A DNA stretch of 38,975 nucleotides from an uncultured Gammaproteobacteria bacterium (GTDB lineage: Bacteria > Patescibacteriota > Patescibacteriia > Patescibacteriales > Patescibacteriaceae): NCBI GenBank assembly GCA_964401085.1, contig CAYNWZ010000001.1, forward strand, positions 1 through 38,975. Reading direction: 5' to 3'. This document shows, piece by piece, positions 1 through 33,072 of this stretch (positions within the stretch are counted from its first letter, which is position 1; the number at the start of each line of letters is the position of its first letter). The translations under genes were made by a program, and so were the position numbers. The notes beneath the pieces were generated by a model. The model was given only the letters and a program-made list of their open reading frames with translations, was not told the origin of the DNA and did not search any database.

Positions 1-9
1 ACTCCAGGC

Positions 10-37
10 AAAAACACGCCAGCAATGGTGTGTTTTT
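10..37. terminator. Bidirectional intrinsic terminator hairpin downstream of tRNA-Ser
   Basis: A-run, then stem cacgcc/ggtgtg (one G-U pair) with a 6-nt loop, then T-run. Read on the minus strand it sits just 3' of the tRNA and is followed by a T-run. Confidence 0.5.
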
Positions 38-44
38 ACGTTCG

Positions 45-131
45 CGGAGGAGAAGGGATTCGAACCCTTGATGCCATTGCTGGCATAGTGCTTTTCGAGA
101 GCACCCGATTCAACCACTCTCGCACTCCTCC
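45..131 (-). tRNA. tRNA-Ser (anticodon CGA), long variable arm
   Basis: The reverse complement reads GGAGGAG..GTGCT CTCGAAA AGCAC..long variable arm TATGCCAGCAATGGCATC..AAGGG TTCGAAT CCCTT..CTCCTCC G. Acceptor, anticodon and T arms all pair. CCA is not encoded. Confidence 0.9.
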
Positions 132-138
132 CAATTAT

Positions 139-876
139 TTAAGCCCTTCTATTCTGGGCTAACTGTTTTAATCTGTCAATCTCGTTTTTGGTCAATTTGC
201 GGCAAGCGCCAATTGGTAATTTACCCAATTCCAAACCGGCTAAAGCGCTCCGTTTCAAATCAACCACCTCATAGCCGGCCGCCTTCATTAGCAAACGAAT
301 CTGCCGCTTTTGCCCTTGCCGTAAAATTATCTCCAGCCGATCACTGGCTAACTGTTCGCCCACCTGAGCTGTGGCTAAAGCCTGATCGTCATAAAGACGA
401 CGGCCTTTGGTCAAAAATTCTTTAAGCTTTTCCAAATCTCGACTAGACAAGCCCGGACGAATAACTACTTCATAGGTTTTTGGATGAGCAAAGCGCGGAT
501 GGGTCAATTTCTCGGTTAAATCGCCATCATTAGTTAACAGAACCAGGCCACGGCTATCTTTATCCAGACGGCCAACGACAAAAAGACGGCCGGAATAATC
601 AATTAATTCAAAAATATTGTGTTCGCCCTTGAAACGGCGATTGGTGCAAGTATAATCGACCGGCTTATTAAGCATAAAATAAACCAACGGCTCGTCTTGA
701 CTAGCAACTGGCCGGCCGTCAACCATAATCACTGTCTGATTAGAACCAATAGTTTGGCCTAATTGGGCTATCTGCCCATCGACCATTACTCGGCCGTCTC
801 TAATCAAGGCTTCGGCTCGGCGCCGCGACCATGGTCCATGGCTAGCTAAATATTTAGTCAACGGCTGGCTAATCAT
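139..876 (-). CDS. RsuA/RluB-family rRNA pseudouridine synthase (S4 domain plus catalytic domain)
   Basis: The 245-aa ORF has an N-terminal S4-like RNA-binding region (SRRRAEALIRDGRVMVDG) and the catalytic motif GRLDKDSRGLVLLTNDG typical of the RsuA/RluB/RluE family. It overlaps the stop of the upstream gene by 8 nt. Confidence 0.85.
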   Translation of the reverse strand: MISQPLTKYLASHGPWSRRRAEALIRDGRVMVDGQIAQLGQTIGSNQTVIMVDGRPVASQDEPLVYFMLNKPVDYTCTNRRFKGEHNIFELIDYSGRLFVVGRLDKDSRGLVLLTNDGDLTEKLTHPRFAHPKTYEVVIRPGLSSRDLEKLKEFLTKGRRLYDDQALATAQVGEQLASDRLEIILRQGQKRQIRLLMKAAGYEVVDLKRSALAGLELGKLPIGACRKLTKNEIDRLKQLAQNRRA

Positions 877-2230
877 GGTCTAACTTATTTTTACTCAAAC
901 CCTCTTTAACCCAGATGGTCATGGCTAAACCCAGCCAGAACAAAACCGCTAAATCATTCTTAAAATAAGGCACATCCACTAAGCCGTGGACAACCGTGGA
1001 CAGCCAAGCGCCCAATAGTCCCCAACTCAACCAGGCTAAATTATTCTGGCGGCGATAGCGCCAAAAATTAAAAAAATTAATCACAACAGCCTTAAACCAC
1101 AACCAGATAAAAATTATTAAGCCAACTAAACCCAATTCACTCCAAAAATTCAAGATAAGATTATGCGGATAAAGATAAATCTCCAATGGTTGCCAGCTTG
1201 GCTTCGCTTTCTTATTAGCTGATTTTATCCAGATTCCTTCATGATGATAAGGCTCAATTGTTTTCTGGTAATTCGCTAATCCGGCTCCAGTCAGCCAACG
1301 ACCGTCACCCAGCATTTGCCAAGTTTCCTGCCATTGCGATTGGCGAATCTGACCGGATAAATCAGCGAGGCGGACTTTCTGCCCAATGATCGCCTGATAA
1401 TCCGGCCGCTGCCAGATTATTAACCCAGCCGCCATTATTACTGCCGCCACAGCTAAACGACTCCAACGATTAGCTAGTAGACCCAGAGCAATCATGGCCG
1501 CCGCTAGACCGATCAGCGCTCCTTCGCTTTTGGCCCAATAAATGGCCAACCAACCGACAATAATACTGCTGGCCAGTAATAGATTGGCCCAATTAAACCA
1601 GTTTTTAACTGTTTTAAGCCGATAAACCAGATAACCCAGCACGGCCAGGATAACTGGCCCGGCAAATAAACCAATGGCGTTAGGATAACCAAAAACCGAG
1701 GTAGCCCGTCTGGTAGCGGCGGCGGCCCAAAACGGATTAGCAATCAGATGGCCGGTTAAATATTGGTAGCCAGCCAATAGACTAATTAACAATAAGCTGC
1801 TGGCCAAAAACAAATAACTGAAACTTATATATTTTGTTCCACGCGGAACATTCCAAAAGAGAATAAAAACTAAGATTGGCTCAATAAAATAGGCCTTCCA
1901 CAAACCCAGAGCGCTAGCGGTTGAGCCACCAATTATCAGCGCCAGCCAAGCCACCAATAACACAACAATCATCTCAATAGTCAATGGGTAGGCTCGCCAA
2001 TTCTTCGCCCGAGAGCGTAAATTAGCCCATGGTTGCGGATATTGTTTAATTAGCCAGACAGCGGTGGTCAGCAATATAAGCTCCTCTAAAACCGTCATCG
2101 GCAGCGGCCCGATTTTAAAACGCAATAGATAGGTCGGCAATAATCCGACTAATAGGCTAACAGTTAGCGGCCAATTGCGCCAAGCTAGTAGTGACCAAAA
2201 AATAGCAACCAATAAGGCGACTAGCCACAT
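869..2230 (-). CDS. O-antigen ligase / Wzy_C-family polytopic membrane protein
   Basis: The 453-aa ORF has about 10-12 hydrophobic helices, a large loop, and the family-type signature H-N-x-x-L-x-x-x-x-E-x-G-x-x-G (YPHNLILNFWSELGLVG). Confidence 0.65.
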   Translation of the reverse strand: MWLVALLVAIFWSLLAWRNWPLTVSLLVGLLPTYLLRFKIGPLPMTVLEELILLTTAVWLIKQYPQPWANLRSRAKNWRAYPLTIEMIVVLLVAWLALIIGGSTASALGLWKAYFIEPILVFILFWNVPRGTKYISFSYLFLASSLLLISLLAGYQYLTGHLIANPFWAAAATRRATSVFGYPNAIGLFAGPVILAVLGYLVYRLKTVKNWFNWANLLLASSIIVGWLAIYWAKSEGALIGLAAAMIALGLLANRWSRLAVAAVIMAAGLIIWQRPDYQAIIGQKVRLADLSGQIRQSQWQETWQMLGDGRWLTGAGLANYQKTIEPYHHEGIWIKSANKKAKPSWQPLEIYLYPHNLILNFWSELGLVGLIIFIWLWFKAVVINFFNFWRYRRQNNLAWLSWGLLGAWLSTVVHGLVDVPYFKNDLAVLFWLGLAMTIWVKEGLSKNKLDHD

Positions 2231-2231
2231 A

Positions 2232-2726
2232 TTATTTATCTAATTGCTGTAAGTTTTTTAATTCCCAAGTGTTATTTAAGGGGTCATAGAGCGCAAAAGT
2301 CGCTGGATAATAAACTCCACCTAGGGTTCCGGGGTTAACTCGCCAAATATTATCGCGTTGCTCTTGCCACGGCTTATGGGTGTGGCCATAAAAGAGAACA
2401 TCAACCGGCCCCTCGGCCAAAACAATGTCTTGATATTCCGGCTCATGACAAATGCCAATCGTTCGTCCTTCAATCTCTAGTTGGCCATAGCGGCCCAAAT
2501 TGTGAAAATCAGGCCGGGCCGGGATAGCGTCTGGAGCATAGCTATCGGCATTACCTTGAACGAAATAGAGTTGGCCTGGCCATAGAGACGCTAACTGCTG
2601 AAAAATGTCGCTATTGGTCAAATCTCCGCAAAAAACCGCCTGCTGGATACCTTGCGATTGGCACCATTTAGCCCAAAGCTGCAAATTAACTAAATTATCG
2701 TGAAGATCACTACAAACTGCCAGCAT
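2232..2726 (-). CDS. YfcE/MJ0936-family metallophosphoesterase
   Basis: The 164-aa ORF carries the calcineurin-like motif series: D-x-H (SDLHDN), GD (FCGDL), GNAD, H (ICHEPE) and GHTH. Confidence 0.8.
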   Translation of the reverse strand: MLAVCSDLHDNLVNLQLWAKWCQSQGIQQAVFCGDLTNSDIFQQLASLWPGQLYFVQGNADSYAPDAIPARPDFHNLGRYGQLEIEGRTIGICHEPEYQDIVLAEGPVDVLFYGHTHKPWQEQRDNIWRVNPGTLGGVYYPATFALYDPLNNTWELKNLQQLDK

Positions 2727-2727
2727 A

Positions 2728-5700
2728 CTAATTGGCCACGCGCCAAATTTCGTCTAGGCTGGTCTCGCCATTGGCGGCTTTCAATAGGCCGTCGTGAGTC
2801 ATTAATAACGCCCCCTGGCTAATGGCTAATTGTTCTATTTCGGCATCGGTGGTCAGTGGCTGTTGAATCAACTTTTGTAATTCCGGGGTCATCACAATAA
2901 CTTCGTAAATACCAACCCGCCCCTTATAGCCAATACCGCGGCATTCCGGACAACCAACTGGGCCATAGAATTGTGGCTGATCAGGTAATTTTAGCTCAGG
3001 TCTAGTTCTTAATAACTGCCAGAATGGCTCAATCTGCGCCTGCATCTCTGGAGAAACGCTAATGGCTTGCTTACATTTAGGACACAACCGCCGCGCTAAA
3101 CGTTGGCCGATAGAACACTCTAGGGCACTGGCTAGCATAGTTCGTTCCACACCTAGACCGGCAAAACGAGCAATAGCGCCGGCCGCGCTATTGGCATGAA
3201 TCGTGGATAACACCAAATGACCGGTTAAACTAGCTTCAATAGCTGTTTTGGCAGTCTCATCGTCGCGGATTTCTCCAACCATAATAATATTCGGGTTCTG
3301 CCGCATTAGCGATCTCAGGGCAGCGGCAAAAGTATAGCCGCCAGCCGTATCAATCTGGGTCTGCATCAAGCCGTCCAAATGATATTCAATCGGATCTTCA
3401 ATGGTAATTATCTTTATTTCTGGATTATTAAGCTGCTTTAACAATGCGTAAAGAGTTGTTGTTTTACCAGAACCGGTCGGACCAGTGGTAATGATAATGC
3501 CCTTGGTTTTATGAATTGATTTTTCAATAGCCGCCAATACAGCATCACGGATACCTAAATCAGCTAAATCCAAGCTGATAGCCTGATTAGACAATAGTCT
3601 AATAACCACTGTCTCGCCATAACCGCCGGTAATTAAAGAAACGCGGCAATCCATCCGTTCGTCCGGCAGATCCATGCCAAAGCGACCGTCAAAAGTCGGC
3701 TGTTTAACACTCAACGACAAACCGACTAAATTCTTAATCTCACCAATCAGCGGCACATAGTGCTCTGAACCCAAAGTCACAATATCGTGCAAAATACCAT
3801 CCAGACGATAACGAATCTTAACCCCGCCCTCAATCGGGTCAATATGGACATCGGCCGCCTTGCTAACAATGGCGCCAGCCATGACAGCGGCCAACATTTC
3901 GCTGGTTGGCTTATTGGCCAATAATTTCTCAGCGCCAACAATGTCTTGGGTCACCTGCTCGCCAAATTGTAGATCTTCCTTAGAAATTTTAAGACCACGG
4001 CCCAGGGTTTGGGAAACGACAATATCATATAATTCATCAATATAATCGGTCTTGCCAATCACCCGCAGCACTTCATCAAATGAGGTTTGGCCATCTAAAA
4101 CTTTTAAGACACCATCCTGCAGCATCGTTACCATACCGTCTTCAATGGCTTGGCGCATAATCTTAAATGATGGCACACCGTCGGCAATTAAACCTTTCAT
4201 CGCTTCGCTCATGGTAAAAATTTCATAGATACCAATCCGCCCTTTATAGCCAAAACCGGAGCATTCTAAACAGCCATCGCCAGCTTCATAAAGCGTCGGT
4301 AATTCTTTGGGCACATCAATATTAGCTTTCGGCGAAATAACCGCTAAAATCTTGTTAATTTGTTGCTTCTCATCTTCACTGAGCTGATGAACGCGGCGGC
4401 AATGCGGACACAATTTGCGCACCAGGCGTTGACCCATAATAGCGTTAATCGCTGGAACTAATTGGTATGGCTGAACCCCCAAATCAACCAGCCGCGGCAA
4501 CACCCCGGCCGCGTCGTTGGTGTGTAAAGTGGAAAAGACTAAATGACCGGTTAAACTGGCCTGAACGGCAATCTCGGCAGTATCTAAATCACGGACCTCA
4601 CCAATCATAACGATATTCGGATCTTGCCGCAAAATTGATTTTAGGCCGTTGGCAAAAGTATAACCGCTTTTTTCATCAACCTGGCTCTGATTAATTCCCT
4701 GAAGCTCATATTCGATTGGATCTTCCAGGGTAATAATCTTAACTCCCGGTTGATTGAGCTTATTCAAAACGGCATAAAGCGTTGTTGTTTTACCAGACCC
4801 CGTTGGCCCAGTGGTTAAAACTAAGCCATTAGGTTTAGCCATTTCGTTTTCCAGGGTCTGCCGAACTTCTGGCCGCATCCCTAAGCTGTCTAGCGGTAAA
4901 ACCGCTGATTTCGGCCGTAATAAGCGCATAACCACACTCTCACCATAGGCGGTTGGCAAAAACGAACTGCGCACTGCCACTTTTTCATCAGGCAAAAAGA
5001 TGTCAAAACGACCATCTTGTGGCTTATTCTCAACGTTTAATTTAACCCGAGCAACAACCTTGAGTCGGGACAATACCTTTTTCCATTGCTGACGAGGAAT
5101 GGTAGCTACCGGCTGCAATAAGCCATCAACCCGCAAGCGAACAATAACCGCCGTTTCTTCGGCTTCAATATGAATATCGCTACTTTCAGCCCGCAAAGCC
5201 GCGGCAATCACTAATGTCAGTATTTGACTGATGTTGGCTTCTTTCAACTTATTGTTCAACAGATTCATCTCACTGAGTTCGGCTTGATAACGAGCCAACT
5301 CTTCCGGGTTAATCTCTACCCCCTCTAAGCGGTTAATCTTCGGTAAAGTATCATAAATCTTGTGAGCATATTCCAAACTGCGCTGAGAAATCAAATACAG
5401 CTTGGCCTTAAGGTGGTGATTGGTCGACAATTCAGCTATCTTGGCCGTTAAAATCTCACTAGGTTGAGTCGTTCCGATACGAATATTATTCTTTTCATAA
5501 TAAAAGCAAACAGCCGCTAAGGCAACAGCATCGTCTTTACTCAACAAACTAATCGCTTCCGGGCTAATTGGAAAATCTAATAAATTGATGTAAGCCAAGC
5601 CTGAAGACTGCGCTTGGGCCGCCACCTGATCTTCAATCGCCTGATAGCGTAAATCGGATTGGCGCTTAGTCAGCTGGGCCGCTGGCGAATCTTTGCTTGC

Positions 5701-5754
5701 CAACACCTTATCATTAAGCAGGTCTTCAATGGAAAGATTGTTATCTTCAACCAT
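2728..5754 (-). CDS. Tandem-duplicated PilB/GspE-family secretion ATPase (two complete ATPase modules in one polypeptide)
   Basis: The 1008-aa ORF repeats every family motif once per module. Walker A: GPTGSGKTTTLYA at aa 316 and aa 758. Asp box: ITLEDPIEY and ITIEDPIEY. Walker B: IVMIGEVRD and IIMVGEIRD. His box: TGHLVFSTLHTND and TGHLVLSTIHANS. Tetracysteine: CPHC..CLEC and CPKC..CPEC. The first ~135 aa look like a T2SSE_N-type N-terminal domain. Confidence 0.9.
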   Translation of the reverse strand: MVEDNNLSIEDLLNDKVLASKDSPAAQLTKRQSDLRYQAIEDQVAAQAQSSGLAYINLLDFPISPEAISLLSKDDAVALAAVCFYYEKNNIRIGTTQPSEILTAKIAELSTNHHLKAKLYLISQRSLEYAHKIYDTLPKINRLEGVEINPEELARYQAELSEMNLLNNKLKEANISQILTLVIAAALRAESSDIHIEAEETAVIVRLRVDGLLQPVATIPRQQWKKVLSRLKVVARVKLNVENKPQDGRFDIFLPDEKVAVRSSFLPTAYGESVVMRLLRPKSAVLPLDSLGMRPEVRQTLENEMAKPNGLVLTTGPTGSGKTTTLYAVLNKLNQPGVKIITLEDPIEYELQGINQSQVDEKSGYTFANGLKSILRQDPNIVMIGEVRDLDTAEIAVQASLTGHLVFSTLHTNDAAGVLPRLVDLGVQPYQLVPAINAIMGQRLVRKLCPHCRRVHQLSEDEKQQINKILAVISPKANIDVPKELPTLYEAGDGCLECSGFGYKGRIGIYEIFTMSEAMKGLIADGVPSFKIMRQAIEDGMVTMLQDGVLKVLDGQTSFDEVLRVIGKTDYIDELYDIVVSQTLGRGLKISKEDLQFGEQVTQDIVGAEKLLANKPTSEMLAAVMAGAIVSKAADVHIDPIEGGVKIRYRLDGILHDIVTLGSEHYVPLIGEIKNLVGLSLSVKQPTFDGRFGMDLPDERMDCRVSLITGGYGETVVIRLLSNQAISLDLADLGIRDAVLAAIEKSIHKTKGIIITTGPTGSGKTTTLYALLKQLNNPEIKIITIEDPIEYHLDGLMQTQIDTAGGYTFAAALRSLMRQNPNIIMVGEIRDDETAKTAIEASLTGHLVLSTIHANSAAGAIARFAGLGVERTMLASALECSIGQRLARRLCPKCKQAISVSPEMQAQIEPFWQLLRTRPELKLPDQPQFYGPVGCPECRGIGYKGRVGIYEVIVMTPELQKLIQQPLTTDAEIEQLAISQGALLMTHDGLLKAANGETSLDEIWRVAN

Positions 5755-5758
5755 AAAT

Positions 5759-7471
5759 TTAATTTATTTGACTGCGGCGTTCTTTAACATAGTTGGTCCA
5801 ATCTTCGGCCATATCGACAAAAAACTTGAATGGCGTTTCAATAATAAAATCTAATAAGAATACAAAAACATTGACTTTATCAAATTTCTCACTCAGCCAC
5901 TTGCCAACTGCCATCACTGGTAAAGTAAAAACATCAAACAAAATCAACCACAAACTCTCTTTGTCTTCAGTAATTCTTAGCTCATTAGTCACCCGCTTGA
6001 TACGAATTATGAAAAAACTGACAAAAACTAAGAAGAACAAGAAAATAATAATACTGATGAGGGTAAAATGCAGAGCGTGCAGCGCCCAGATGATAGCGCT
6101 AAAGGTTATCAAAAAAGTAAAAGAGTAGATAACATTAAAGATCTTCGTCAATATGTTGGCCTTTTTCTGAGATAATCGAACGGCAATCGGTGTTTGACGA
6201 CGATTTTCTTCAAAAGACAGCTCATTAACCAAACCGATTATCTTATCCGTGTTAGATTCGTTGGGTAACTTGGTAATCAACACTGAGAAGAATAAAAGGG
6301 CCGCCGGAAAAGCGGCGTTAATTAGTAGAGCTCCCCAGCTAACCGGCGCGCCGAATATCTTATTGGCTGGAATCTCTAAGGCGATTACCAAAACCGTTTT
6401 GGTTAAAAAGATATAAATAATACTACGAACAGCCGCCCGCCACAATAAACTTTTGGCCCTGGTATAATTTTTCTCACAAACTTTTTTAATCTGCCGCGGA
6501 AAAGCTTTTGGGTCAGTTTTAATACTAGTATAAATACCGACCGGATCGGCTCGTAACACATCTAACAGCACCGAGGTAGAAACGGCGTAGCGCCTAGTTA
6601 GCTTATCTAATGGTCCAGCTAGTGGGTGGTGGAGCTGTTGGTTAATGGCCTGACGAATTTCCTGAATTTTCTTGGCAACAGCCGGCCAGCGGCTGGCCTC
6701 CATTTTTTGCCAATCGGCTAAATAATATTTAAACAAAATAAAGGCCAGCATGTCATTGTCCAGCTTGGCAAAATTACGATTAACCGAAAGATAAATTTGA
6801 ATTGGCAAATCGGCCGATAATTCTGGATGGTTGGCTAGTTCAATATTATCTAATAAATACTGGTACAAATTATTAATGGCTTGATTTAGGGGTTGATCAT
6901 TGCCCAGTCGACTCTCGATTTCGCTGGCAGCCACGGCCAGTAGCCAGGCCACCAACTCATTGCGTTGCGACAACTCTTCTTTAAACTTAACCAAATCCTT
7001 TTTTATTAAGCTGGCCGATCCGGACAATTGACCCAACTGAGCAACAGCAATATCTTTAATAACCAAATACTTCTTAATAATAGCCGCTACCTCATCAATC
7101 AAACTGGTCGGCAAATGATTGTTCGGCAAATAGCCGCCGCGAATCAATTCAGCCAATAGATGCTGGCTGATTTTTTCATGATCATTGTCGGTTATCGTGC
7201 CCTCAATCAATATTTGGCGCCGCAAAATCCGCTCAATCGCCTCTTTGCGCAGCAAATATTCTTCTTTATAGTCAACGGCGTTGCGAATCTTTTCATAAAA
7301 AAAAGACATCCGCGAAATCACGCTGGATACCTTGATTCTTGGCTGATCTCCTTTGGCTCCGCCTGAGCTATGTTGAGCGTGATAAATAGCCTGCAACAAT
7401 TTCTTGGTGCTATCATTAACCGTTAAGACAGCGGCTGGATGTTCGTGAATTTTTGGATTTAACATAAACAA
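5759..7471 (-). CDS. Uncharacterised 570-aa membrane protein (about 340-aa soluble helical N-terminus, about 5-6 C-terminal TM helices)
   Basis: Long ORF ending 4 nt before the ATPase start. Hydrophobic segments cluster from about aa 345 to 540. I recognise no family motif, and it is not PilC/GspF-like. Confidence 0.6.
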   Translation of the reverse strand: MFMLNPKIHEHPAAVLTVNDSTKKLLQAIYHAQHSSGGAKGDQPRIKVSSVISRMSFFYEKIRNAVDYKEEYLLRKEAIERILRRQILIEGTITDNDHEKISQHLLAELIRGGYLPNNHLPTSLIDEVAAIIKKYLVIKDIAVAQLGQLSGSASLIKKDLVKFKEELSQRNELVAWLLAVAASEIESRLGNDQPLNQAINNLYQYLLDNIELANHPELSADLPIQIYLSVNRNFAKLDNDMLAFILFKYYLADWQKMEASRWPAVAKKIQEIRQAINQQLHHPLAGPLDKLTRRYAVSTSVLLDVLRADPVGIYTSIKTDPKAFPRQIKKVCEKNYTRAKSLLWRAAVRSIIYIFLTKTVLVIALEIPANKIFGAPVSWGALLINAAFPAALLFFSVLITKLPNESNTDKIIGLVNELSFEENRRQTPIAVRLSQKKANILTKIFNVIYSFTFLITFSAIIWALHALHFTLISIIIFLFFLVFVSFFIIRIKRVTNELRITEDKESLWLILFDVFTLPVMAVGKWLSEKFDKVNVFVFLLDFIIETPFKFFVDMAEDWTNYVKERRSQIN

Positions 7472-7544
7472 TCTTATACCATTAAGAATAGCGGAAAGAG
7501 CCCTTAAAGTAAAGGCTGAGCTAGGATGATAAAGCTGTTAGCGG

Positions 7545-7618
7545 TGGACCTTAAGGGATTCGAACCCTTGACCTCCTGCATGCAAAGCAGGCGCTCTAGC
7601 CAACTGAGCTAAAGGCCC
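7545..7618 (-). tRNA. tRNA-Ala (anticodon TGC)
   Basis: The reverse complement reads GGGCCTT TA GCTC AGTTGGCTA GAGC G CCTGC TTTGCAT GCAGG AGGTC AAGGG TTCGAAT CCCTT AAGGTCC A, including the G3:U70 Ala identity pair. Confidence 0.9.
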
Positions 7619-7622: not shown

Positions 7623-7886
7623 CTAAATACTCTTCTGATAGCGGATTAATGGACCAAGCAACCAGCCCATAAAATTACTTATTAAACCAAAGGCGATAGA
7701 AAAACCAATAAAAATAGCAACCAAACCAACCAACAAATAAGCCAAACGAGATCCGCCATAAAGACCAAGTTTTTCTTCAAAAAACTCCATTCGGCCAAAA
7801 TTATTCAGAAACCATTCGCGCTTCATAATAATTAGAGCACCAATCGCCACAATCGCTAGCCCGCCCAAAAAACGTAACAAAAACAT
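7623..7886 (-). CDS. Small membrane protein (87 aa, 2-3 TM), hypothetical
   Basis: ORF packed 3 nt downstream of the M23 peptidase gene. It is strongly hydrophobic with no recognisable motif. Confidence 0.45.
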   Translation of the reverse strand: MFLLRFLGGLAIVAIGALIIMKREWFLNNFGRMEFFEEKLGLYGGSRLAYLLVGLVAIFIGFSIAFGLISNFMGWLLGPLIRYQKSI

Positions 7887-15089: not shown

Positions 15090-16262
15090 ATGCCTGATAA
15101 GCCAAACCATTCTTTTCCCAAGGGATTCCTTTGGGGAACGGCCACATCATCCCACCAAATTGAAGGTGGCACTCTTAATGATTGGACCATCTGGGAGCCT
15201 GGTCACACTAATGACGGATCAATCTCGGGGGTAGCTTGTGATTCTTATCGCCGATTCAAAGAAGATGTCAGCCTGGCCAAAAAAATCAACAACAATGCTT
15301 ATCGCTTTTCAATTGAGTGGAGCCGCATTGAACCACGACAACAACAATTTTCCCAACAAGCTCTGCGGCATTATCAAGCAGTAATTGACGAGTGCCGACG
15401 ACAAAAAATTGAGCCGGTGGTTACTATTTATCATTTTACCCAGCCAATTTGGTTTGCCGAACTAGGTGGTTGGAATAATCCAGCGGCACCGCAAATTTTT
15501 AATAATTATGTGCTCTATTTAGCCCAAAATCTGAAACGGGTCAAAATCTGGTGCACAATTAACGAGCCTGGTTTGTATGTTTGGAACGCCTATGGACAAG
15601 GAAAATGGCCACCACAAAAATACAGTCTATGGTCTTGGTGGACAGCCTCTAATAATCTAATCAGGAGTCACCGCCTGGCCTATCGAACACTGCATCTGAC
15701 GCAAAAAAATTGTCAGGTCGGTATTGCTAATAATAGCCAAGCCATTGAACCAATTAACAATCACTTCCTTAATCGTTTGGTCGGAAAAATTGCCAACCAT
15801 TTAATTAACGATCATTTCTTCCAAAAAACTGCCGGTTGCCACGACTACTTAGGCATTAATTATTACTTTCACCGGCAAATCGGTTTAGGGCGACGACCCA
15901 AAAATCAACAGTGGCGCAATGACTTGGGTTGGGAAATTTATCCGCAAGGTCTTTATCAGGTGCTGATGGCCGCTAAAAAATACAACCTGCCCATCTACAT
16001 CTTAGAAAATGGCTTGGCCGACTCTCAAGATCAACATCGCCAACGATTTATCATGGAACATTTAACAATGGTTTATCGAGCCATTCAAGATGGCTGTCCA
16101 GTCAAAGGTTATTTTCATTGGTCGTTACTAGATAATTTTGAATGGAAGTGGGGATTTGAGCCGCGTTTTGGACTTTATGTGGTTGACTATCAATCTTTGG
16201 AGCGCCGACCGCGGCCCAGCAGCCGAACTTATGCCAAAATCGGTAAGAATAACGGTTTTTAG
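15090..16262 (+). CDS. Glycoside hydrolase family 1 (beta-glucosidase-like), compact 390-aa form
   Basis: N-terminal FPKGFLWGTATSSHQIEGG, the acid/base motif TINEPG, the nucleophile motif YILENGLAD, and C-terminal YFHWSLLDNFEW. Confidence 0.85.
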   Translation: MPDKPNHSFPKGFLWGTATSSHQIEGGTLNDWTIWEPGHTNDGSISGVACDSYRRFKEDVSLAKKINNNAYRFSIEWSRIEPRQQQFSQQALRHYQAVIDECRRQKIEPVVTIYHFTQPIWFAELGGWNNPAAPQIFNNYVLYLAQNLKRVKIWCTINEPGLYVWNAYGQGKWPPQKYSLWSWWTASNNLIRSHRLAYRTLHLTQKNCQVGIANNSQAIEPINNHFLNRLVGKIANHLINDHFFQKTAGCHDYLGINYYFHRQIGLGRRPKNQQWRNDLGWEIYPQGLYQVLMAAKKYNLPIYILENGLADSQDQHRQRFIMEHLTMVYRAIQDGCPVKGYFHWSLLDNFEWKWGFEPRFGLYVVDYQSLERRPRPSSRTYAKIGKNNGF

Positions 16263-16265
16263 ACT

Positions 16266-17216
16266 ATGTGGCTACTTATCACTGTCTTGGCTAATTTATT
16301 TAACGGGGCTGTTTATCTAGCCGATAAATACTTTTTATCTAAAAAAGTTCACTCTTCCATCTCCTATACTTTTTATGTCGGCATTTGGAGCGTTGGCAAC
16401 TGCGTTCTATTCCTATTCAACCGCCACGTCCCGACTTGGCCATGGTTATTGCTAGATTTAGCCGCCGGCTTAGTGTTTATGGCTGCCCTCTATTTTTGGT
16501 ATAAGGCGCTTCATCAGGGAGAAACCACCAAGGTCGTGCCCATTGCCGGAGCTTTCATTCCAATTTTTACCTTGCTGTTAAATTATTTAATTGGTCGCCA
16601 CAATTTAACTGGTCAAGAGCTTGGGGCTCTGGTTATTTTGATTATTGGCAGCGGATTATTGTCGGCTAGACCAAAAGATAACCAATGGTTGGCTTGGTGG
16701 ATTAGACTAAAAAGATTCTTACAACCTGATAAGGTTATTTTTCGCAGCACAAGACGGTTGATTTTTAATTCTCTATTGGCCTCATTCATTTTCGCTACCT
16801 ACTATGTGCTCATCAAATTTTTATATGATTCTCAGGGCTTTGCCAACGCTTTTATCTGGACTAGGCTGGGCAGTTTTGTCGGCGCCCTAGCCCTAATAGT
16901 TTGGCCAGCCAGCCGACGCCTGATTCTAGATAAACCGCGCCGACAAACAACCATCAAGAGCCTGCCGTTATTTTTACTAATTAGAATTATTGCCTTTATC
17001 GCTTTTGTTCTCAGTAACTTTGCCATAGCCCTGGCCGATGTTTCTCTGGTTAACAGCCTGCAGGGATTGCAGTATTTATTCTTACTGGTAATCGTTTTGA
17101 CTTTAACTAAGCGCTACCCCAAGCTGGTCAAACAAGAAATTAGTCGCGATAATCTGTGGCAAAAAATTAGCGGTATTGTCCTAATTAACTTGGGCTTATT
17201 TTTATTATTATGGTAA
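16266..17216 (+). CDS. Polytopic membrane protein, possibly a DMT/EamA-like permease
   Basis: 316 aa with about 9-10 TM helices, sandwiched between two glycosidase genes with gaps of 3 nt or less or overlaps. The family assignment rests on size and topology only. Confidence 0.35.
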   Translation: MWLLITVLANLFNGAVYLADKYFLSKKVHSSISYTFYVGIWSVGNCVLFLFNRHVPTWPWLLLDLAAGLVFMAALYFWYKALHQGETTKVVPIAGAFIPIFTLLLNYLIGRHNLTGQELGALVILIIGSGLLSARPKDNQWLAWWIRLKRFLQPDKVIFRSTRRLIFNSLLASFIFATYYVLIKFLYDSQGFANAFIWTRLGSFVGALALIVWPASRRLILDKPRRQTTIKSLPLFLLIRIIAFIAFVLSNFAIALADVSLVNSLQGLQYLFLLVIVLTLTKRYPKLVKQEISRDNLWQKISGIVLINLGLFLLLW

Positions 17217-18232
17217 AAAATATACAACGACGGTGGCGCTGGATAATTGCTGGGCTAACCACTTTAATTGTTTTGGGAATACTGTGGATCTGGCTAACAA
17301 GGCGGGATATCTACCAGCCAAACCAAATGAGCTATGGCCTAACTTTTTCACCATTGGTTTTAAAAGATATGGGCCTAGATTGGCGCGCCGCCCTTACCGA
17401 AACATTGGATGATTTGGCCGTCAAACGACTGCGGTTAGTGGCTTATTGGCCAATGATTGAACCGACCAAGGATAATTATGATTTTAGTGATTTAGATTGG
17501 CAAATTGAACAAGCCGGACAAAAAAATGCCCAAATTATATTAGCAGTTGGCGCACGCTTGCCCCGCTGGCCCGAATGTCATTATCCGCAATGGTATAATG
17601 CCGAAAACGCAACTGAAAGACAGCAACAATTATTAACTTATTTACAGGCGGTCATGGAGCGCTATGACCACAACCCGGCCATCGCCGCCTGGCAAATTGA
17701 AAATGAGCCGTTTTTAATCGGCTTTGGTGAATGTCCCAAATTAAATATTAAGCTTTTGGACCAAGAAATCGCCCTCGCCCGTAGTCTCACTAAAAAACCA
17801 ATAATTATCACTGACAGCGGCGAACTGAGCATCTGGTTACCAGCTGCCAAACGAGCCGATATTTTTGGCACATCAATCTATCGCCACACTTACAGCAAAT
17901 ATTTGCGCCATTATATTACCTATCCGATGACTCCAAATTTTTTCAGGATCAAAACCAAGCTGGTTGAGCTTTTAACCAAGACTAAAGATTTGATTGTTAT
18001 CGAAATGCAGGCTGAGCCCTGGGGGCGCAAAGCCTATTTTACCCTTTCTCCGGCCGAAAGAAATCGCACGATGAACATGGAAAAACTACAAGAAATGCTG
18101 GAATTTAGCCGTCAGAGCGGTTTTCAAACAATTTATTTATGGGGCGTAGAGTGGTGGTATTGGGAAAAACAAGTTAACCACAACCCTGAATATTGGCAAT
18201 TTATCAAAAATCTTTTGTCTCAATCAATATGA
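17210..18232 (+). CDS. Membrane-anchored TIM-barrel glycoside hydrolase (clan GH-A, GH5-like)
   Basis: 340 aa with an N-terminal TM anchor (WIIAGLTTLIVLGILWIWL) and the clan GH-A acid/base motif AWQIENEPF. A later E in the IEMQAEPWG region is a candidate nucleophile. Confidence 0.55.
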   Translation: MVKNIQRRWRWIIAGLTTLIVLGILWIWLTRRDIYQPNQMSYGLTFSPLVLKDMGLDWRAALTETLDDLAVKRLRLVAYWPMIEPTKDNYDFSDLDWQIEQAGQKNAQIILAVGARLPRWPECHYPQWYNAENATERQQQLLTYLQAVMERYDHNPAIAAWQIENEPFLIGFGECPKLNIKLLDQEIALARSLTKKPIIITDSGELSIWLPAAKRADIFGTSIYRHTYSKYLRHYITYPMTPNFFRIKTKLVELLTKTKDLIVIEMQAEPWGRKAYFTLSPAERNRTMNMEKLQEMLEFSRQSGFQTIYLWGVEWWYWEKQVNHNPEYWQFIKNLLSQSI

Positions 18233-19074
18233 ATAAACGGCAATTACTAATCGGCCTGGATATCGGCGGCTCTAAAGTTTTGGGCCTGCTTTATGACCGA
18301 CAAACTGGCAAGTCTTACGCGGCCAAGCGCCAACCAATTAGCAAAGAAGGGCTGTCTAATCTATTAAATCAGCTTAATATGGAAATTAGTCGGCTTTCAA
18401 TGGAAGCTGACCGGCTACAGGCCAAAATAACCGGCATTGGTATTGGTATTCCCGGGTCAATTAATAATGGCAAAATTATTCGTTGTCCAAACCTACCGAT
18501 ACTCAACGGCCAAAAATTGGGTCGACTCCTGGCTCCAACCCATAAAATAAACAATATAGTTCTAGACAATGATTTAAACTGTTTCTTGCGCGCTTATTTA
18601 GAAAAACATCCTGCCTTAAAAAAACAAACCTTAATTGTGATTGCCCTGGGCACTGGTGTCGGCGGGTCAATTGCCATTAATGGCCAGAATATCATTAAAT
18701 ATTTAGGGATTAGCAGTGAGCTGGGTCATCTTGCCGTTGATCAATCCGGCCATGATTTGGAATATTATTATCACAAAATAACCGGCCATCCCGCTGGTCG
18801 ATTATTTACCGCAGCCGAAGGTGGCGATCAGACAGCTCAAAGAAAAGTCAATCAATTCGCCAATATCTTTGGGTTAGCGGTGGCTAATCTTAACACTATC
18901 TTCAACCCGAACTCCATTATTTTGACCGGCGGTGTTTCCCGCTACCATAGATTTTATCTAGCTCAGGTTAAAAAAATAGTTAAAAAACACAGCTTCACCG
19001 ACAACCGTCCTGGCTGGCGAATTGGCCATGATCAAAAAGCTGGGGCTATCGGTGCCAGCCTCCTGATTAACTAA
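18229..19074 (+). CDS. ROK-family sugar kinase (glucokinase-like)
   Basis: The N-terminal ATP-binding motif GLDIGGSKV and ALGTGVGGSI are present. The ATG at 18229 overlaps the upstream TGA (ATGA), so the internal Met start is preferred over the track start. Confidence 0.8.
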   Translation: MNKRQLLIGLDIGGSKVLGLLYDRQTGKSYAAKRQPISKEGLSNLLNQLNMEISRLSMEADRLQAKITGIGIGIPGSINNGKIIRCPNLPILNGQKLGRLLAPTHKINNIVLDNDLNCFLRAYLEKHPALKKQTLIVIALGTGVGGSIAINGQNIIKYLGISSELGHLAVDQSGHDLEYYYHKITGHPAGRLFTAAEGGDQTAQRKVNQFANIFGLAVANLNTIFNPNSIILTGGVSRYHRFYLAQVKKIVKKHSFTDNRPGWRIGHDQKAGAIGASLLIN

Positions 19075-22109: not shown

Positions 22110-22160
22110 GGCGGCAGAATAAATTTTAATTCTTAGCCCTTGTTGGTTAAAACAAATTTT

Positions 22161-22553
22161 ATGAATCAAATTAAAAAGTTTCTGTTCGGATTGTTGGCAC
22201 TCCAATGCCTCGCTCTAAGTCCAGTCGCCATTGCTCCAGTTAGAGCAGATGTTGATTTATGGGGTGGCAACAATATCGCCAACAACGCTTTCAACAGTAT
22301 CGGTTTCAGCAGAAAAGACCCGCGAGAAATTGTGGCCAATATTATTAAGATCTTGCTAGGCTTTCTCGGGACCATTGCTGTTGTTTTGATTATCTATGCC
22401 GGCTTTTTGTGGATGACGGCGGCTGGCAAGCCCGACAACACCAAAAAAGCCAAAGACATAATGTCGGCGGCAGTGACTGGCTTGGTGATTATTTTAATAT
22501 CTTACGGTATTACGGTATTTGTTACCAATGCCTTAAGTAACGCTATTCAATAA
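22161..22553 (+). CDS. TrbC/VirB2-like small pilin-family membrane protein, paralog 1
   Basis: Signal peptide (..LSPVAIAPVRA|D), a variable region, then two hydrophobic helices flanking the loop FLWMTAAGKPDNTKKAKD. The ATG at 22161 is preferred to the TTG start in the track. Confidence 0.6.
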   Translation: MNQIKKFLFGLLALQCLALSPVAIAPVRADVDLWGGNNIANNAFNSIGFSRKDPREIVANIIKILLGFLGTIAVVLIIYAGFLWMTAAGKPDNTKKAKDIMSAAVTGLVIILISYGITVFVTNALSNAIQ

Positions 22554-22587
22554 AAATTAATTAACTATTAATAAGGTTAAGAAACTT

Positions 22588-22977
22588 ATGAAAAAACTTT
22601 TTGTCGGCTTAATGTCTTTAGTCTGGGCCGCCAGCTTACTGTCTTTAGCTCCAGCCGCTAGCCAGGCTCAAAGCATGAACGCCAATGACTTATGGGGAAA
22701 TGGCACGGTTAGCACTTATCAGAATCAGGGCTTTTCCACCACTGATCCTCGTCAAACAGTTGCCAAGATCATCAAAGTGGCTCTTGGTTTTTTGGGATCA
22801 ATCGCCGTTATCTTAATCGTCCTAGCTGGCTTCAAATGGATGACCGCGGCTGGCAACGAAGATAAAATTGCTGAATCCAAGAAATTAATGGCCGCCGCCT
22901 TTGTCGGTTTGGTTATTATCTTAACTGCCTTTGCTCTAACCAATTTCGTTATTAATTCGGTTATCTCCACTATCTAG
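22588..22977 (+). CDS. TrbC/VirB2-like pilin-family protein, paralog 2
   Basis: Signal peptide (..APAASQA|Q). The same DLWG..F(S)..DPR...A.IIK..LGFLG.IAV..I..AGF.WMTAAG core as paralog 1. Confidence 0.6.
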   Translation: MKKLFVGLMSLVWAASLLSLAPAASQAQSMNANDLWGNGTVSTYQNQGFSTTDPRQTVAKIIKVALGFLGSIAVILIVLAGFKWMTAAGNEDKIAESKKLMAAAFVGLVIILTAFALTNFVINSVISTI

Positions 22978-22986
22978 CGATAGCTT

Positions 22987-23050
22987 AATTCGCCAAATTA
23001 TCTTGGCGAATTTTGTCTCAACCCAAATATTTTGGATTGAGACAAAATTT
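22987..23050 (+). terminator. Two consecutive hairpins (attenuator/terminator-like) splitting the pilin array into 2+4 genes
   Basis: Hairpin A is aattcgccaa/ttggcgaatt (10 bp, loop attatc) followed by TTTT. Hairpin B is ttttgtctcaa/ttgagacaaaa (11 bp) followed by TTTCTT. Confidence 0.5.
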
Positions 23051-23064
23051 CTTAAACAAACTCC

Positions 23065-23424
23065 ATGTCTAGACAGTTGACAATTATTCAGCGGGCAACC
23101 TATCTGCTTGGTTTTTATTTTCTACCAATAATTGCTCGAGCCGACAACTTTGGGCTAGATCAGGCTGCAGGCAGCGCTGGACTAAAAAGTAGCAGCACCC
23201 TGGCAGAAAAATCAGGCCAAATTATTGGTTCTCTCTTAAGTCTAGTTGGCGTCATCTTTTTGGTCTTAATGATTTATGGTGGAATCACTTGGATGACGGC
23301 TAGCGGCAATGATAAGCAGGTAGATAAAGCTAAAAATATTATTACTTATGCCATCATAGGCTTGGTGATAATCCTATCAGCCTATACTATTACCGCCTTT
23401 TTGGGCGGGACATTGGCCCGATAA
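23065..23424 (+). CDS. TrbC/VirB2-like pilin-family protein, paralog 3
   Basis: N-terminal hydrophobic leader, then LSLVGVIFLVLMIYGGITWMTASGNDKQVDKAKNII and a second helix. Confidence 0.6.
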   Translation: MSRQLTIIQRATYLLGFYFLPIIARADNFGLDQAAGSAGLKSSSTLAEKSGQIIGSLLSLVGVIFLVLMIYGGITWMTASGNDKQVDKAKNIITYAIIGLVIILSAYTITAFLGGTLAR

Positions 23425-23425
23425 T

Positions 23426-23836
23426 ATGTTTTGGCAAAGCAAAACAAAACTATTAATTACTTCCGTAGCCCTACTGTTAACGCCAGGTCTTAGAGTTAAG
23501 GCGCAATCTAATAGCGCCACCGAGGCCACCAATGCTTTTGGTTATTTTTTTGGCGGTGCCCAGAAAACAGCTAACCAGATGGGGTATGTGGCCAGCACCA
23601 CCGATGGCACCAGCCTGCTGCTTCTCCAGGCCGCGGCCATAGTTAGTTTTATTTTAAGCCTAGTTGGCGTCATCTTTTTGGTCTTAATGATTTATGGTGG
23701 AATCACTTGGATGACGGCTAGCGGTAATGATAAGCAGGTGGAAAAAGCCAAGGGGACTATCAGTCGCGCGGCCATTGGCTTAATTATAGTTATTCTGGCC
23801 TATGCTATTACTTTTTTTGTTGTTAACCGAATATAA
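23426..23836 (+). CDS. TrbC/VirB2-like pilin-family protein, paralog 4
   Basis: Signal peptide (..LRVKA|Q). The core LSLVGVIFLVLMIYGGITWMTASGNDKQVEKAK shares 65 identical consecutive nucleotides with paralog 3. Confidence 0.6.
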   Translation: MFWQSKTKLLITSVALLLTPGLRVKAQSNSATEATNAFGYFFGGAQKTANQMGYVASTTDGTSLLLLQAAAIVSFILSLVGVIFLVLMIYGGITWMTASGNDKQVEKAKGTISRAAIGLIIVILAYAITFFVVNRI

Positions 23837-23838
23837 TT

Positions 23839-24147
23839 ATGCCAGCTAATCTACAAAACGCCTTTTCCGGAGACAGTTTGAACCAAACCGCAGTAGCTGC
23901 CGGCTATAATCCAGCTCAAAATAACGCCCTAACAACTATTGGTAATTTTATAACCATTATTCTTGGGTTGATTGGTGTTATTTTTTTAGCTCTAATAATT
24001 TATGGCGGTTTTTTGTGGATGACGGCTAGCGGCAATGATAAGCAGGTAGATAAAGCCAAAGCCATTATTGGTCAAGCAACCGTCGGTCTTGTAATTATAA
24101 TCCTGGCCTATTCTATAACCTTTTTTATTATTAAAATTCTTCCATAA
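23839..24147 (+). CDS. TrbC/VirB2-like pilin-family protein, paralog 5 (no obvious signal peptide)
   Basis: 102 aa starting with a polar stretch (MPANLQNAFSGDSLNQ..), followed directly by the two-helix core FLWMTASGNDKQVDKAK. Confidence 0.55.
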   Translation: MPANLQNAFSGDSLNQTAVAAGYNPAQNNALTTIGNFITIILGLIGVIFLALIIYGGFLWMTASGNDKQVDKAKAIIGQATVGLVIIILAYSITFFIIKILP

Positions 24148-24151
24148 CCCT

Positions 24152-24559
24152 ATGTCAAAAACAAATATCTTGGCAACAAGACTGATTTCTTTAATAATAA
24201 TGGCTGTCGGCTTGATAAATATTCCCCTGGCGCAAGCCGTGCCAGCAGAAACATTGACCAACCTTAGAACGGTGGCATCACCGAGTTATCAAGCCCCAAC
24301 CGATGAAAACACTTTGTTTAACAACATATCGTCTATAATAAAGCTGGTCCTGGAATTACTGGGTTTCATTTTTGTTATTTTAATGATTTATGCTGGCATT
24401 CTGTGGATGACGGCCGGTGGCAATGAAAAACAAGTAGAAAAAGCCAAAAACATTATCAGCCGAGCGGCCATTGGTTTGATCATTGTGGTCTCAGCTTACG
24501 CGATAACTTATTTTATCTTTACTAATTTACCGGGCGGAGGCGGAGCTGGACCAGCTTAA
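24152..24559 (+). CDS. TrbC/VirB2-like pilin-family protein, paralog 6 (Gly-rich C-tail)
   Basis: Signal peptide (..IPLAQA|V), core ILWMTAGGNEKQVEKAKNII, and C-terminal LPGGGGAGPA. Confidence 0.6.
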   Translation: MSKTNILATRLISLIIMAVGLINIPLAQAVPAETLTNLRTVASPSYQAPTDENTLFNNISSIIKLVLELLGFIFVILMIYAGILWMTAGGNEKQVEKAKNIISRAAIGLIIVVSAYAITYFIFTNLPGGGGAGPA

Positions 24560-26612: not shown

Positions 26613-26628
26613 TTAATTAATTCACCGA

Positions 26629-27663: not shown

Positions 27664-27668
27664 CCTGA

Positions 27669-28805: not shown

Positions 28806-29012
28806 ATTAATTTATAATATATAAATAAAGAGATAATAATATAGTTTGGGTAAAAGTTGATAACCTGTTTTTGTTTTAAACTTTGGCTAAAAAATAAACT
28901 GGCTGTTTGGGGATAAAAATTTAATAAAAAGTTAATGGTTGGTGGATAAAAAAAATATTTATTGCTTGGCTGTGGATTAAGCATTGTTTTCCACAACAAT
29001 TTCTTTGTCATG
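28806..29012. other. Candidate oriC: AT-rich unwinding tract plus a cluster of DnaA boxes in the dnaA-dnaN spacer
   Basis: The AT-rich stretch at 28806-28850 is attaatttataatatataaataaagagataataatatag. The 8/9 boxes are TGGGGATAA (28908), GGTGGATAA (28941), TGTGGATTA (28971) and, in the opposite orientation, TTTTCCACA (28987). There is also a 7/9 box at 28856. Confidence 0.55.
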
Positions 29013-30401: not shown

Positions 30402-30488
30402 AATATTTAGATTAGCGGCTTGATTTTATTATAACAGGCTTGGTTTTTTCGGCAACCCAAAAATAAGTTAATAAGTTTGTTAATAACC

Positions 30489-30497
30489 TGTGGACAA
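30489..30497. promoter_or_regulatory. DnaA box (TGTGGACAA, 8/9) in the dnaA/rpmH divergent control region
   Basis: A single near-consensus box 88 nt upstream of the dnaA start, plausibly autoregulatory. Confidence 0.4.
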
Positions 30498-32097: not shown

Positions 32098-33072
32098 ATG
32101 ATTCTTTATCGTCAAATCATTAAGCAAGCCTGGCAAAACACCATCAAGAATAGCTGGTTGTGGGTTGCCGGTGTGCTAGCTGCCTTATTGACCAATGTTG
32201 GTCAGTATAGTAATTTGTTCGGCTCGCTGGATGGCACCAATGGTTGGCTAAGAATCAATCAAAATTTAGCTGAATTTTGGTCTAAGGCGATTATGGTTAT
32301 TAAGGGCGCGATTAGTAGCCCGTTGCTTTTATTGATTTGCTTGCTTATTGTTGTGTTAGCCTTGGTGGTGTTATTCTTGGCGGTTAATAGTCAAATTTTC
32401 GTGGTTAAGCAGGTTGAGCTAGGGCTAAAGTCTGGCGAACAGCCACTTCCTCGACCAAAAGCTGGCCTATGGAAACAATTAGTTGGCAATTGGCCAATAT
32501 TCTGGTCAGCGGCTGGGGCAATAGTGGCGATTAAGATTTTATTATTATTCTGTTTATTGGTTATTAGTTTATTAATGGCGGTTATTTACGCCGTTCATCA
32601 GCCGATTATCAGCTCTTTCCTGTATATTTTGTTATCGCTATTAGCGCTGGCCGTAATTTGGCTGGTAGCGGTTTGGACTCGTTATTGGATTTTGTTATTA
32701 TTGACCAGCAAGAAAAGCAATTTATTACTATCGGCTCGACAGGCCTGGGCAATGCTCAAGCAAAACATTTTAGTCAGCCTAGAGATGTCAATAATTATTG
32801 TATTAATAAATTTGTTGGCCTATTTATTGTGGGTATTCATTATATATTTATTAGCCATCCCCTTCGTTTTACTGACGTTGTTACTGATTAAGTATTTGGC
32901 GGTTAGCCAGTTATTATTAATTACTGTTGCCAATATTTTATTGATTGCCAGTTTATTGGTTTTGGTTGGTTTTATGGTGGTGCTGGAAACCAGTTTGTGG
33001 CTTAATTTCATGAATAATTTAAATAACCAAAAGATCACTAGTAAGTTAAGGCGGATTTTTAAGCGTCGCTAA
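32098..33072 (+). CDS. Hypothetical polytopic membrane protein (324 aa)
   Basis: About 7-8 Leu/Ile-rich TM helices. It occupies the position where jag/R3H usually follows yidC, and I recognise no motif. Confidence 0.45.
   Translation: MILYRQIIKQAWQNTIKNSWLWVAGVLAALLTNVGQYSNLFGSLDGTNGWLRINQNLAEFWSKAIMVIKGAISSPLLLLICLLIVVLALVVLFLAVNSQIFVVKQVELGLKSGEQPLPRPKAGLWKQLVGNWPIFWSAAGAIVAIKILLLFCLLVISLLMAVIYAVHQPIISSFLYILLSLLALAVIWLVAVWTRYWILLLLTSKKSNLLLSARQAWAMLKQNILVSLEMSIIIVLINLLAYLLWVFIIYLLAIPFVLLTLLLIKYLAVSQLLLITVANILLIASLLVLVGFMVVLETSLWLNFMNNLNNQKITSKLRRIFKRR

Follow-up and report, generated by a model that had tools for sequence, protein, structure and literature searches.

In contig CAYNWZ010000001.1 (GenBank assembly GCA_964401085.1; the whole stretch of 38,975 nt that was analysed is called the window here), five minus-strand genes form a tight block at positions 139 to 7471. 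In the direction of transcription, they encode a polytopic membrane protein that we call X570, a PilB/GspE-type ATPase with two catalytic modules (the double PilB), a YfcE-type phosphodiesterase, a Wzy_C-family membrane protein and a pseudouridine synthase. The original prediction, which was made from the DNA letters and their translations, read this block as a non-canonical operon around the double ATPase and put X570 forward as a new platform or partner of the motor. Here, we found that the unit conserved across Patescibacteria is instead a four-gene cassette of another polytopic membrane protein (c1), the tandem PilB, a Translin-family protein and the YfcE/MJ0936 phosphodiesterase. The five-gene block of the window is probably a clade-specific composite that arose by rearrangement and not a conserved machine, and X570 most likely acts independently of PilB.

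A tandem PilB ATPase is encoded in a conserved four-gene cassette

The ATPase is a chain of 1008 aa with two complete T2SSE modules, the first of which carries an N-terminal domain. The T2SSE domain (PF00437) matched it with 763 bits in two stretches (cutoff 24.9), and the equivalog cutoffs of both GspE (TIGR02533, 874 against a cutoff of 630) and PilB (TIGR02538, 842 against a cutoff of 676) were exceeded; the ComGA model of NCBIfam gave 472 bits. The two halves are 40% identical to each other (E 1e-119), and both carry the Walker A motif GPTGSGKTTT, the GE(V/I)RD motif with the Walker B glutamate (GEVRD/GEIRD), the His box TGHLV..T.H and a tetracysteine zinc motif with four cysteines (CxxC...CxxC). 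The Walker A, GE(V/I)RD, His box and cysteine residues were invariant among 14 diverse homologues, and the closest relatives in the PDB are PilB of Geobacter and Myxococcus, GspE of Vibrio and PilF of Thermus. Because the second half has kept the tetracysteine motif, it can be classed as PilB/GspE-like and not PilT-like. Judged by its sequence, the protein is a fusion of two PilB units, each with an intact catalytic module. The double-PilB family is widespread in Patescibacteria, with the best 120 matches all 992-1015 aa long, and members from outside the clade of the window are 57-60% identical to the window protein. In the literature searched, no description of a tandem or fused PilB, or of its cassette, was found.

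We examined 85 double-PilB loci (two from look-ups, 80 from metagenomes and the window itself), a few of which duplicate contigs of the genome collection, e.g. L087 and L002. Among the informative loci outside the window clade, the gene that directly precedes the double PilB encodes c1, a membrane protein of 326 aa, in 57/62 loci, with a median gap of 14.5 nt. A Translin-family protein (PF01997) is encoded directly downstream of the ATPase in 56/60 loci (median gap 14 nt), and the YfcE phosphodiesterase gene follows Translin in 46/52 loci (median gap 3 nt). In 20 non-clade loci, the gene for an inositol-monophosphatase-family (Inositol_P) enzyme comes after YfcE with a median gap of 4 nt. The cassette is kept despite differing flanks in L096, L121, L142 and L162, and it is missing beside the ATPase in some lineages (L126, L128, L147, L153 and L155). 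The most persistent linkage is that of PilB and YfcE, and of the genes that adjoin the double PilB in the block of the window, only YfcE is conserved as its neighbour across lineages.

The c1 protein has no Pfam match, and its AlphaFold2 (AF2) model was poor (predicted local distance difference test score, pLDDT, of 61) and had no fold match in the PDB. Weak matches of this model to CysZ, a choline-transporter-like protein and VirB6 were not significant. When c1 was aligned to a Patescibacteria PilC with hhalign, the probability was 0.09%, which ruled out c1 as a divergent PilC. A word-indexed search for distant c1 relatives returned only 14 clade members and a single distant match (P0254, DUF7544) that is not encoded beside PilB.

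X570 is conserved in a housekeeping context without PilB

All X570 homologues start at the counterpart of the ATG at 7465, so the protein is probably 568 aa long and not 570 aa as first described. The AF2 model and hydropathy indicate ~340 all-helical residues at the N-terminus and, after them, 4-6 transmembrane (TM) helices. No match to X570 was found in NCBIfam, in PDB sequences or in Pfam, the last tried down to E 10, and a T2SSF match was absent even at E<=10. The AF2 model, built from a 22-sequence alignment, was moderately confident (pLDDT 74.5; predicted template modelling score, pTM, 0.74). A Foldseek search of this model against the PDB gave nothing at E<=0.001, and the best TM-scores were <=0.15; weak matches to the TM domains of ABC exporters were judged to be noise. 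The hhalign comparison of the X570 family profile with a Patescibacteria PilC (from locus L027) gave a probability of 0.13%, and hhalign also ruled out a homology between X570 and c1.

At least 888 close homologues of X570 were found, all of them full length and all from Patescibacteria (Falkowbacteria, Parcubacteria and unclassified metagenome-assembled genomes), and the identity across lineages was 45-50%. A profile search of 1.84 billion representatives gave a family of 1,041 clusters at 50% identity, nearly all with proteins of 515-570 aa. Distant members carried no informative extra domain, and an IF2_N fusion in one distant relative looks like a gene-call merge.

The neighbourhood of X570 was studied in 80 loci with 10-kb flanks from species-representative genomes, in which homologues of the window proteins were mapped. 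The double PilB adjoins X570 on the downstream side in 11/11 close loci, in which X570 is at least 66% identical to that of the window. In contrast, PilB was found within three genes of X570 in none of the 59 more distant loci with downstream sequence (X570 identity 45-49%). In these 59 loci, the genes downstream of X570 were an rsmI-like TP_methylase gene (49/59), metG (39) and cvpA (31), followed by yrdC and tatD. Upstream of X570, many distant loci encode c4, an 83-aa TM protein, and c5, a protein of ~157 aa, in the order c4-c5-X570. This conserved housekeeping context argues for a PilB-independent role of X570.

Two of the checks suggested with the original prediction thus turned out negative for X570. 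Its adjacency to PilB is limited to the clade of the window, and no remote homology to GspF/PilC was detected by profile alignment or, at E<=0.001, by fold comparison. A divergent PilC platform was rejected as the identity of X570 on these grounds together with the lack of a T2SSF match. Since c1 and not X570 is conserved beside the double ATPase, the choice of X570 as the partner was probably wrong. Taken together, these results suggest that X570 is most likely a widely conserved membrane protein of Patescibacteria with a job independent of PilB, and not a PilC-like platform.

The five-gene block probably arose by rearrangement in a narrow clade

In nine loci, the window included, X570 occupies the slot of c1, Translin is not found beside the ATPase, and the YfcE gene lies directly downstream of the double PilB (8/8 clade loci with regard to YfcE), followed by the Wzy_C gene and then the pseudouridine-synthase gene. 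The gap between X570 and PilB is exactly 4 nt in 9/9 of these loci. The block is intact in all clade loci (8-9) while the flanks vary, and the complete five-gene order is visible in L001, L002 and L009. The link of the Wzy_C gene to the ATPase is restricted to this clade (cluster c14, 8 of the 85 double-PilB loci), and the pseudouridine-synthase gene (cluster c15) is likewise found beside the ATPase in the window clade only.

The c1 profile matched the product of an open reading frame (ORF) of the window that encodes a 324-aa polytopic membrane protein, with full-length coverage and an E-value of 1.9e-39. Reciprocally, a profile of the clade c1 proteins recovered all 68 PilB-adjacent c1 proteins and nothing else. 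The gene lies ~25 kb from the ATPase, and the yidC-c1-infB position is the same in a relative that is 56% identical (L166). By these profile matches, it is a homologue, orthologous or paralogous, of the PilB-adjacent c1. No Translin homologue was found in the window. Homologues of c4 and c5 are encoded side by side near the end of the window, where a polA-like partial ORF follows them in place of X570. This c4-c5 pair without X570 would mark the ancestral site that X570 left. The 87-aa membrane protein encoded upstream of the block was ruled out as c4, the c4 profile having matched the ORF near the window end instead.

We propose that an ancestral c1-double PilB-Translin-YfcE cassette was broken in a narrow Falkowbacteria-related clade, in which the PilB-YfcE pair alone would have stayed together. 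An ancestral c4-c5-X570-rsmI-metG-cvpA arrangement would also have been broken, with X570 moving to the slot upstream of the ATPase. In the same clade, c1 would have been relocated behind yidC, and the Wzy_C and pseudouridine-synthase genes would have come to follow YfcE.

Several points weigh against this proposal. The block is intact in 8-9 clade loci and the 4-nt gap between X570 and PilB is kept throughout while the flanks change, a pattern that selection for co-expression might have produced. In the slot upstream of the ATPase, a gene for one polytopic membrane protein has been swapped for that of another, and this could be a functional displacement and not chance. In addition, the non-clade loci share long-range synteny (tRNA synthetases, uvrA), and part of the conservation of the cassette may come from an inherited gene order and not from a functional coupling.

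The five genes are tightly packed between two tRNA genes

The junctions within the block are -8, 1, 1 and 4 nt, in agreement with the tight packing described before. The co-directional run exceeds the five genes, in that it begins with an M23 peptidase gene and continues with the gene of the 87-aa protein, tRNA-Ala, the five genes and tRNA-Ser. Among the other same-strand gene pairs of the window, 16/24 are equally tight (<=4 nt), clearly unrelated genes included. Because such packing is common across the window, it supports co-transcription and not a shared function of the block. The five genes are a real block that is probably co-transcribed. Terminator and promoter scans gave only weak consensus matches inside genes and no clear operon boundaries. 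By eye, a hairpin with a T-run was spotted after tRNA-Ser (window 1-43, minus strand), as was an extended -10-like element, TGgTATAAG, ~10-20 nt upstream of the X570 ATG (window 7466-7542, minus strand). No Shine-Dalgarno sequence was seen by eye before this ATG, and a leaderless or short-leader start is possible. The coordinates of the block and of related features are collected in Table 1.

Table 1. Location of the block, its flanks and related genes in the window and, where a locus is named, in relatives
Feature	Position	Strand	Details
RsuA/RluF-family rRNA pseudouridine synthase	139..876	-	PseudoU_synth_2 + S4
Wzy_C-family polytopic membrane protein	869..2230	-	PF04932, 61.1 bits (cutoff 31.7)
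YfcE/MJ0936-type metallophosphodiesterase	2232..2726	-	Metallophos_2, 85.4 bits; TIGR00040, 62.6 (cutoff 56.25)
Tandem-fused PilB/GspE ATPase	2728..5754	-	1008 aa; two complete T2SSE modules
ATPase half 1	~4057-5754	-	N-terminal domain + N2 + ATPase C-terminal domain
ATPase half 2	~2728-4047	-	N2 + C-terminal domain only
X570 membrane protein	5759..7465	-	568 aa from ATG at 7465; longest ORF (5759-7471) from TTG at 7471
tRNA-Ser(CGA)	44..131	-	ARAGORN; closes the co-directional run
tRNA-Ala(UGC)	7543..7618	-	ARAGORN; 77 nt upstream of X570 ATG
87-aa membrane protein	7623-7886	-	Upstream of the block
M23/LysM peptidase	 	-	Beyond tRNA-Ala, upstream of the block
c1 homologue, polytopic membrane protein	32098..33072	+	324 aa; behind rnpA-yidD-yidC, before infB
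c4 homologue	36506-36799	+	97 aa; hmmsearch E 4.8e-23
c5 homologue	36803-37306	+	167 aa; hmmsearch E 4.2e-51
Translin-family gene (PF01997), example	L081 13020-13595	 	Immediately downstream of the double PilB; likewise in 59 other loci
Prepilin	L136 5885-6997	 	N_methyl + Fib_succ_major; between Translin and YfcE; the only one in 2.3 Mb of fetched loci
Canonical single PilB and PilC	L027 77-3006	-	PilB of 578 aa (MshEN + T2SSE); PilC with two T2SSF domains; 2 kb upstream of an X570 homologue, opposite strand
Insert regions beside the block in clade relatives	L089 51-5248; L094 2043-6225, 13681-15186; L091 5264-6178	 	Methylase, OLD nuclease, helicase, GT2-like, DUF5655 and recombinase genes

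In the relatives, variable inserts lie on the tRNA-Ala side of X570 and contain restriction-modification, OLD-nuclease, helicase, GT2-like and DUF5655 genes, and in L094 a serine recombinase gene comes after the block. The tRNA-flanked borders of the block appear to be hotspots for variable islands.

The three genes downstream of the ATPase were assigned by domain searches. The PDB entry of MJ0936 matched the YfcE product at 3e-8. The pseudouridine synthase scored well below the equivalog cutoffs of RluF and RsuA. The Wzy_C protein resembles the Wzy_C family (WaaL, Wzy, PglL and PilO/TfpO) in its PF04932 domain and its many TM helices (~10 hydrophobic segments by hydropathy). It differs from these enzymes in that no subfamily could be assigned, as NCBIfam gave no match and the PDB held no sequence relative, and in that its link to the ATPase is specific to the clade. 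For the PglL/TfpO subgroup of pilin O-oligosaccharyltransferases, no relative was found in NCBIfam or the PDB, and there is no pilin in the window.

No PilC gene and only one prepilin gene is linked to the double PilB in the loci examined

The motors of type IV filaments are thought to act on a PilC/GspF platform. No T2SSF/PilC domain was found in the ORFs of at least 90 aa in the window. A phmmer search with a Patescibacteria PilC, run on six-frame translations amounting to 2.3 Mb (the window and 167 loci), matched only the query itself, and a linked PilC was found in 0/85 double-PilB loci. The class-III signal-peptide motif, searched with a relaxed pattern, was absent from every frame of the window. 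Among the 85 loci, a prepilin gene is linked to the double PilB in one, L136. In the distant X570 set, the only PilB near X570 is the canonical single PilB of L027, which is paired with a PilC. The finding of this PilC shows that the methods detect PilC where it is present, and the pair is a case in which a canonical pilus motor occurs together with a member of the X570 family.

These results uphold the absence of PilC and prepilins from the window as originally stated, and they show that the double-PilB locus is not a canonical pilus or type II secretion system (T2SS) locus, as there is no linked PilC/GspF and there are no linked prepilins in the window. The assignment to the Candidate Phyla Radiation (CPR), which had been made with reserve, is supported as well. 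The claim of a non-canonical context therefore holds for the double PilB, but it does not extend to X570 as its partner. Nothing supports the further suggestion that the Wzy_C protein glycosylates a fibre subunit, as its link to the ATPase is confined to the clade and no pilin lies nearby.

In comparison with PilB, GspE and PilF (T2SSE, PF00437), each half of the ATPase has the N2 and C-terminal architecture and all motifs, but the two modules are joined in one 1008-aa chain with an N-terminal domain on the first only. Moreover, the double PilB is tied to c1, Translin and YfcE and, in the loci examined, never to PilC/GspF. With regard to PilC/GspF (T2SSF, PF00482), X570 and c1 are similar in being polytopic and encoded immediately upstream of a PilB-type ATPase, and X570 also in having a large helical cytoplasmic region; however, neither has a T2SSF match or a PDB fold match, and their lengths and topologies differ. 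The ComGA ATPase of the competence pseudopilus is of the PilB family as well, and the second half of the double PilB is similar to the short form of ComGA, which lacks an N1 domain. DprA is encoded in the window, whereas genes for ComGB/PilC, ComGC-type pilins, ComEC and ComEA are not linked. A role of the double PilB in DNA uptake can only be inferred. KaiC and p97/Cdc48 likewise have two homologous NTPase modules per chain, both apparently active, but they belong to other superfamilies and the analogy is one of architecture only. In other lineages, the double PilB has Translin/TRAX (C3PO) and MJ0936/YfcE proteins as its conserved partners on the downstream side, of which the window has YfcE but not Translin. 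We know of no system in which a Translin or MJ0936/YfcE enzyme is coupled to a PilB-type motor.

Other features of the window

The ORFs of at least 90 aa show that the window is an origin-proximal housekeeping region with dnaA, dnaN, rnpA, yidC, infB, nusA, topA, dprA and PBP1 genes. The chromosomal origin region lies at 26000-31000. There, the minus strand carries dnaN (27669-28805) and dnaA (29013-30401), and the plus strand carries rnpA-yidD-yidC. At ~26-28 kb, the cumulative GC skew reaches its minimum and the coding-strand bias switches. Six tandem small genes on the plus strand (22140-24559; products of 102-137 aa) all match PF18895, 'T4SS_pilin', and by sequence their products resemble the VirB2/TrbC pilins of type IV secretion and not the pilins of type IV pili. 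The type IV secretion system of Patescibacteria is the topic of a 2025 paper (PMC12102498). A tight cluster for sugar use at 15090-19074, also on the plus strand, encodes a GH1 beta-glucosidase, an EamA transporter, a GH42/GH10-like hydrolase and a ROK kinase.

Discussion

In this study, we found that the neighbours of the double PilB in the window differ from those in most other Patescibacteria, and that X570 has a stable neighbourhood of its own elsewhere. We consider it probable that the block was put together by rearrangement in one clade. Two questions are then how the double PilB works and what its partners are. The tandem chain would assemble as a ring of three chains and six modules (a pseudo-hexamer) or as a stacked double ring, and it is expected to power a membrane process of a type-IV-filament-like or related kind. 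The platform and the substrates of this motor would be encoded elsewhere in the genome, or would involve c1. Canonical pilus clusters that include a single PilB of their own are common among CPR bacteria, and the double PilB may therefore be a second, specialised motor.

The alternative that survives best, although we regard it as somewhat doubtful, is that the double PilB powers the assembly of an ordinary type IV pilus of CPR bacteria, with pilC, pilM-O, pilD and the pilin genes located elsewhere and with c1, Translin, YfcE and X570 functionally unrelated to it. Canonical PilB/T/C/M/N/O/D genes and pilins are widespread and co-localise in many CPR genomes (PMC6744442), and the PilB-PilC pair of L027 is an example of them. 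Each half of the ATPase reaches the score of a genuine PilB/GspE and has the zinc-binding motif, a true prepilin is inserted in the cassette of L136, and in a gene-dense genome tight junctions are common. On the other hand, canonical CPR clusters have their own single PilB beside PilC, as in L027, and the lack of any double PilB beside PilC in the 85 loci suggests a separate role. Moreover, the linkage of c1, Translin and YfcE survives changes of the flanks.

It is less likely still that c1, Translin and YfcE join the double PilB, at times together with the inositol-monophosphatase-family enzyme, in an undescribed PilC-free machine, of which the clade of the window would have a reduced and rearranged version with X570 perhaps recruited into the c1 slot. 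Such a machine could, for instance, be a motor in the membrane that takes up nucleic acids, with their breakdown and salvage coupled to it. Translin/C3PO proteins bind single-stranded nucleic acids and cut them, and enzymes of the MJ0936/YfcE type have phosphodiesterase activity. DNA uptake is powered by PilB ATPases of the ComGA type, and CPR bacteria have to scavenge their nucleotides. The short gaps of the cassette, its presence in 45-57 of 52-62 informative loci, some with differing flanks, the absence of linked PilC genes and the near absence of linked prepilin genes are in line with this explanation. However, c1 is stably apart from the ATPase and Translin is missing in the window clade, which shows that the cassette is not obligatory, and at least 5-8 lineages (among them the five named above) have no c1, Translin or YfcE gene beside the ATPase. 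In addition, the sampled loci share wider synteny, so the linkage is maybe historical, and c1 has no recognisable domain and a poor model. The association of c1, Translin and YfcE suggests a possible link to nucleic-acid handling that is speculative. The case for this link is the weaker because c1 is separated and Translin is lost in the clade, and because the sampled loci have broader synteny in common.

It is very unlikely that X570 displaced c1 as the platform of the double PilB in this clade and that the five genes act jointly, with the Wzy_C protein glycosylating a fibre subunit: X570 does sit in the c1 slot at a constant 4 nt from the ATPase, the block does stay intact despite variable defence and mobile inserts on both sides, and the cytoplasmic helical domain and TM helices of X570 are platform-like, but X570 occurs in ~1,000 clusters at 50% identity with another stable context that lacks PilB, the clade has retained c1, X570 resembles PilC/GspF in neither sequence, profile nor fold, the Wzy_C and pseudouridine-synthase links are confined to the clade, the window holds no pilin substrate, and comparable tight packing joins unrelated genes across the window.

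Taken together, a clade-specific rearrangement with a PilB-independent X570 is the explanation that we favour for the block. X570 itself represents a large CPR-wide family whose genomic surroundings are of the housekeeping kind. The epibiotic lifestyle of CPR bacteria relies on pili and on the import of nucleic acids, and the double-PilB fusion, which is widely conserved and in our loci never encoded beside PilC, could be part of a distinct machine. Alternatively, it could stand for a distinct mode of motor assembly, in which two non-identical subunits alternate in the ring at a fixed 1:1 ratio. The candidate partner of this motor that is worth testing is c1, encoded in the window behind yidC, and not X570.

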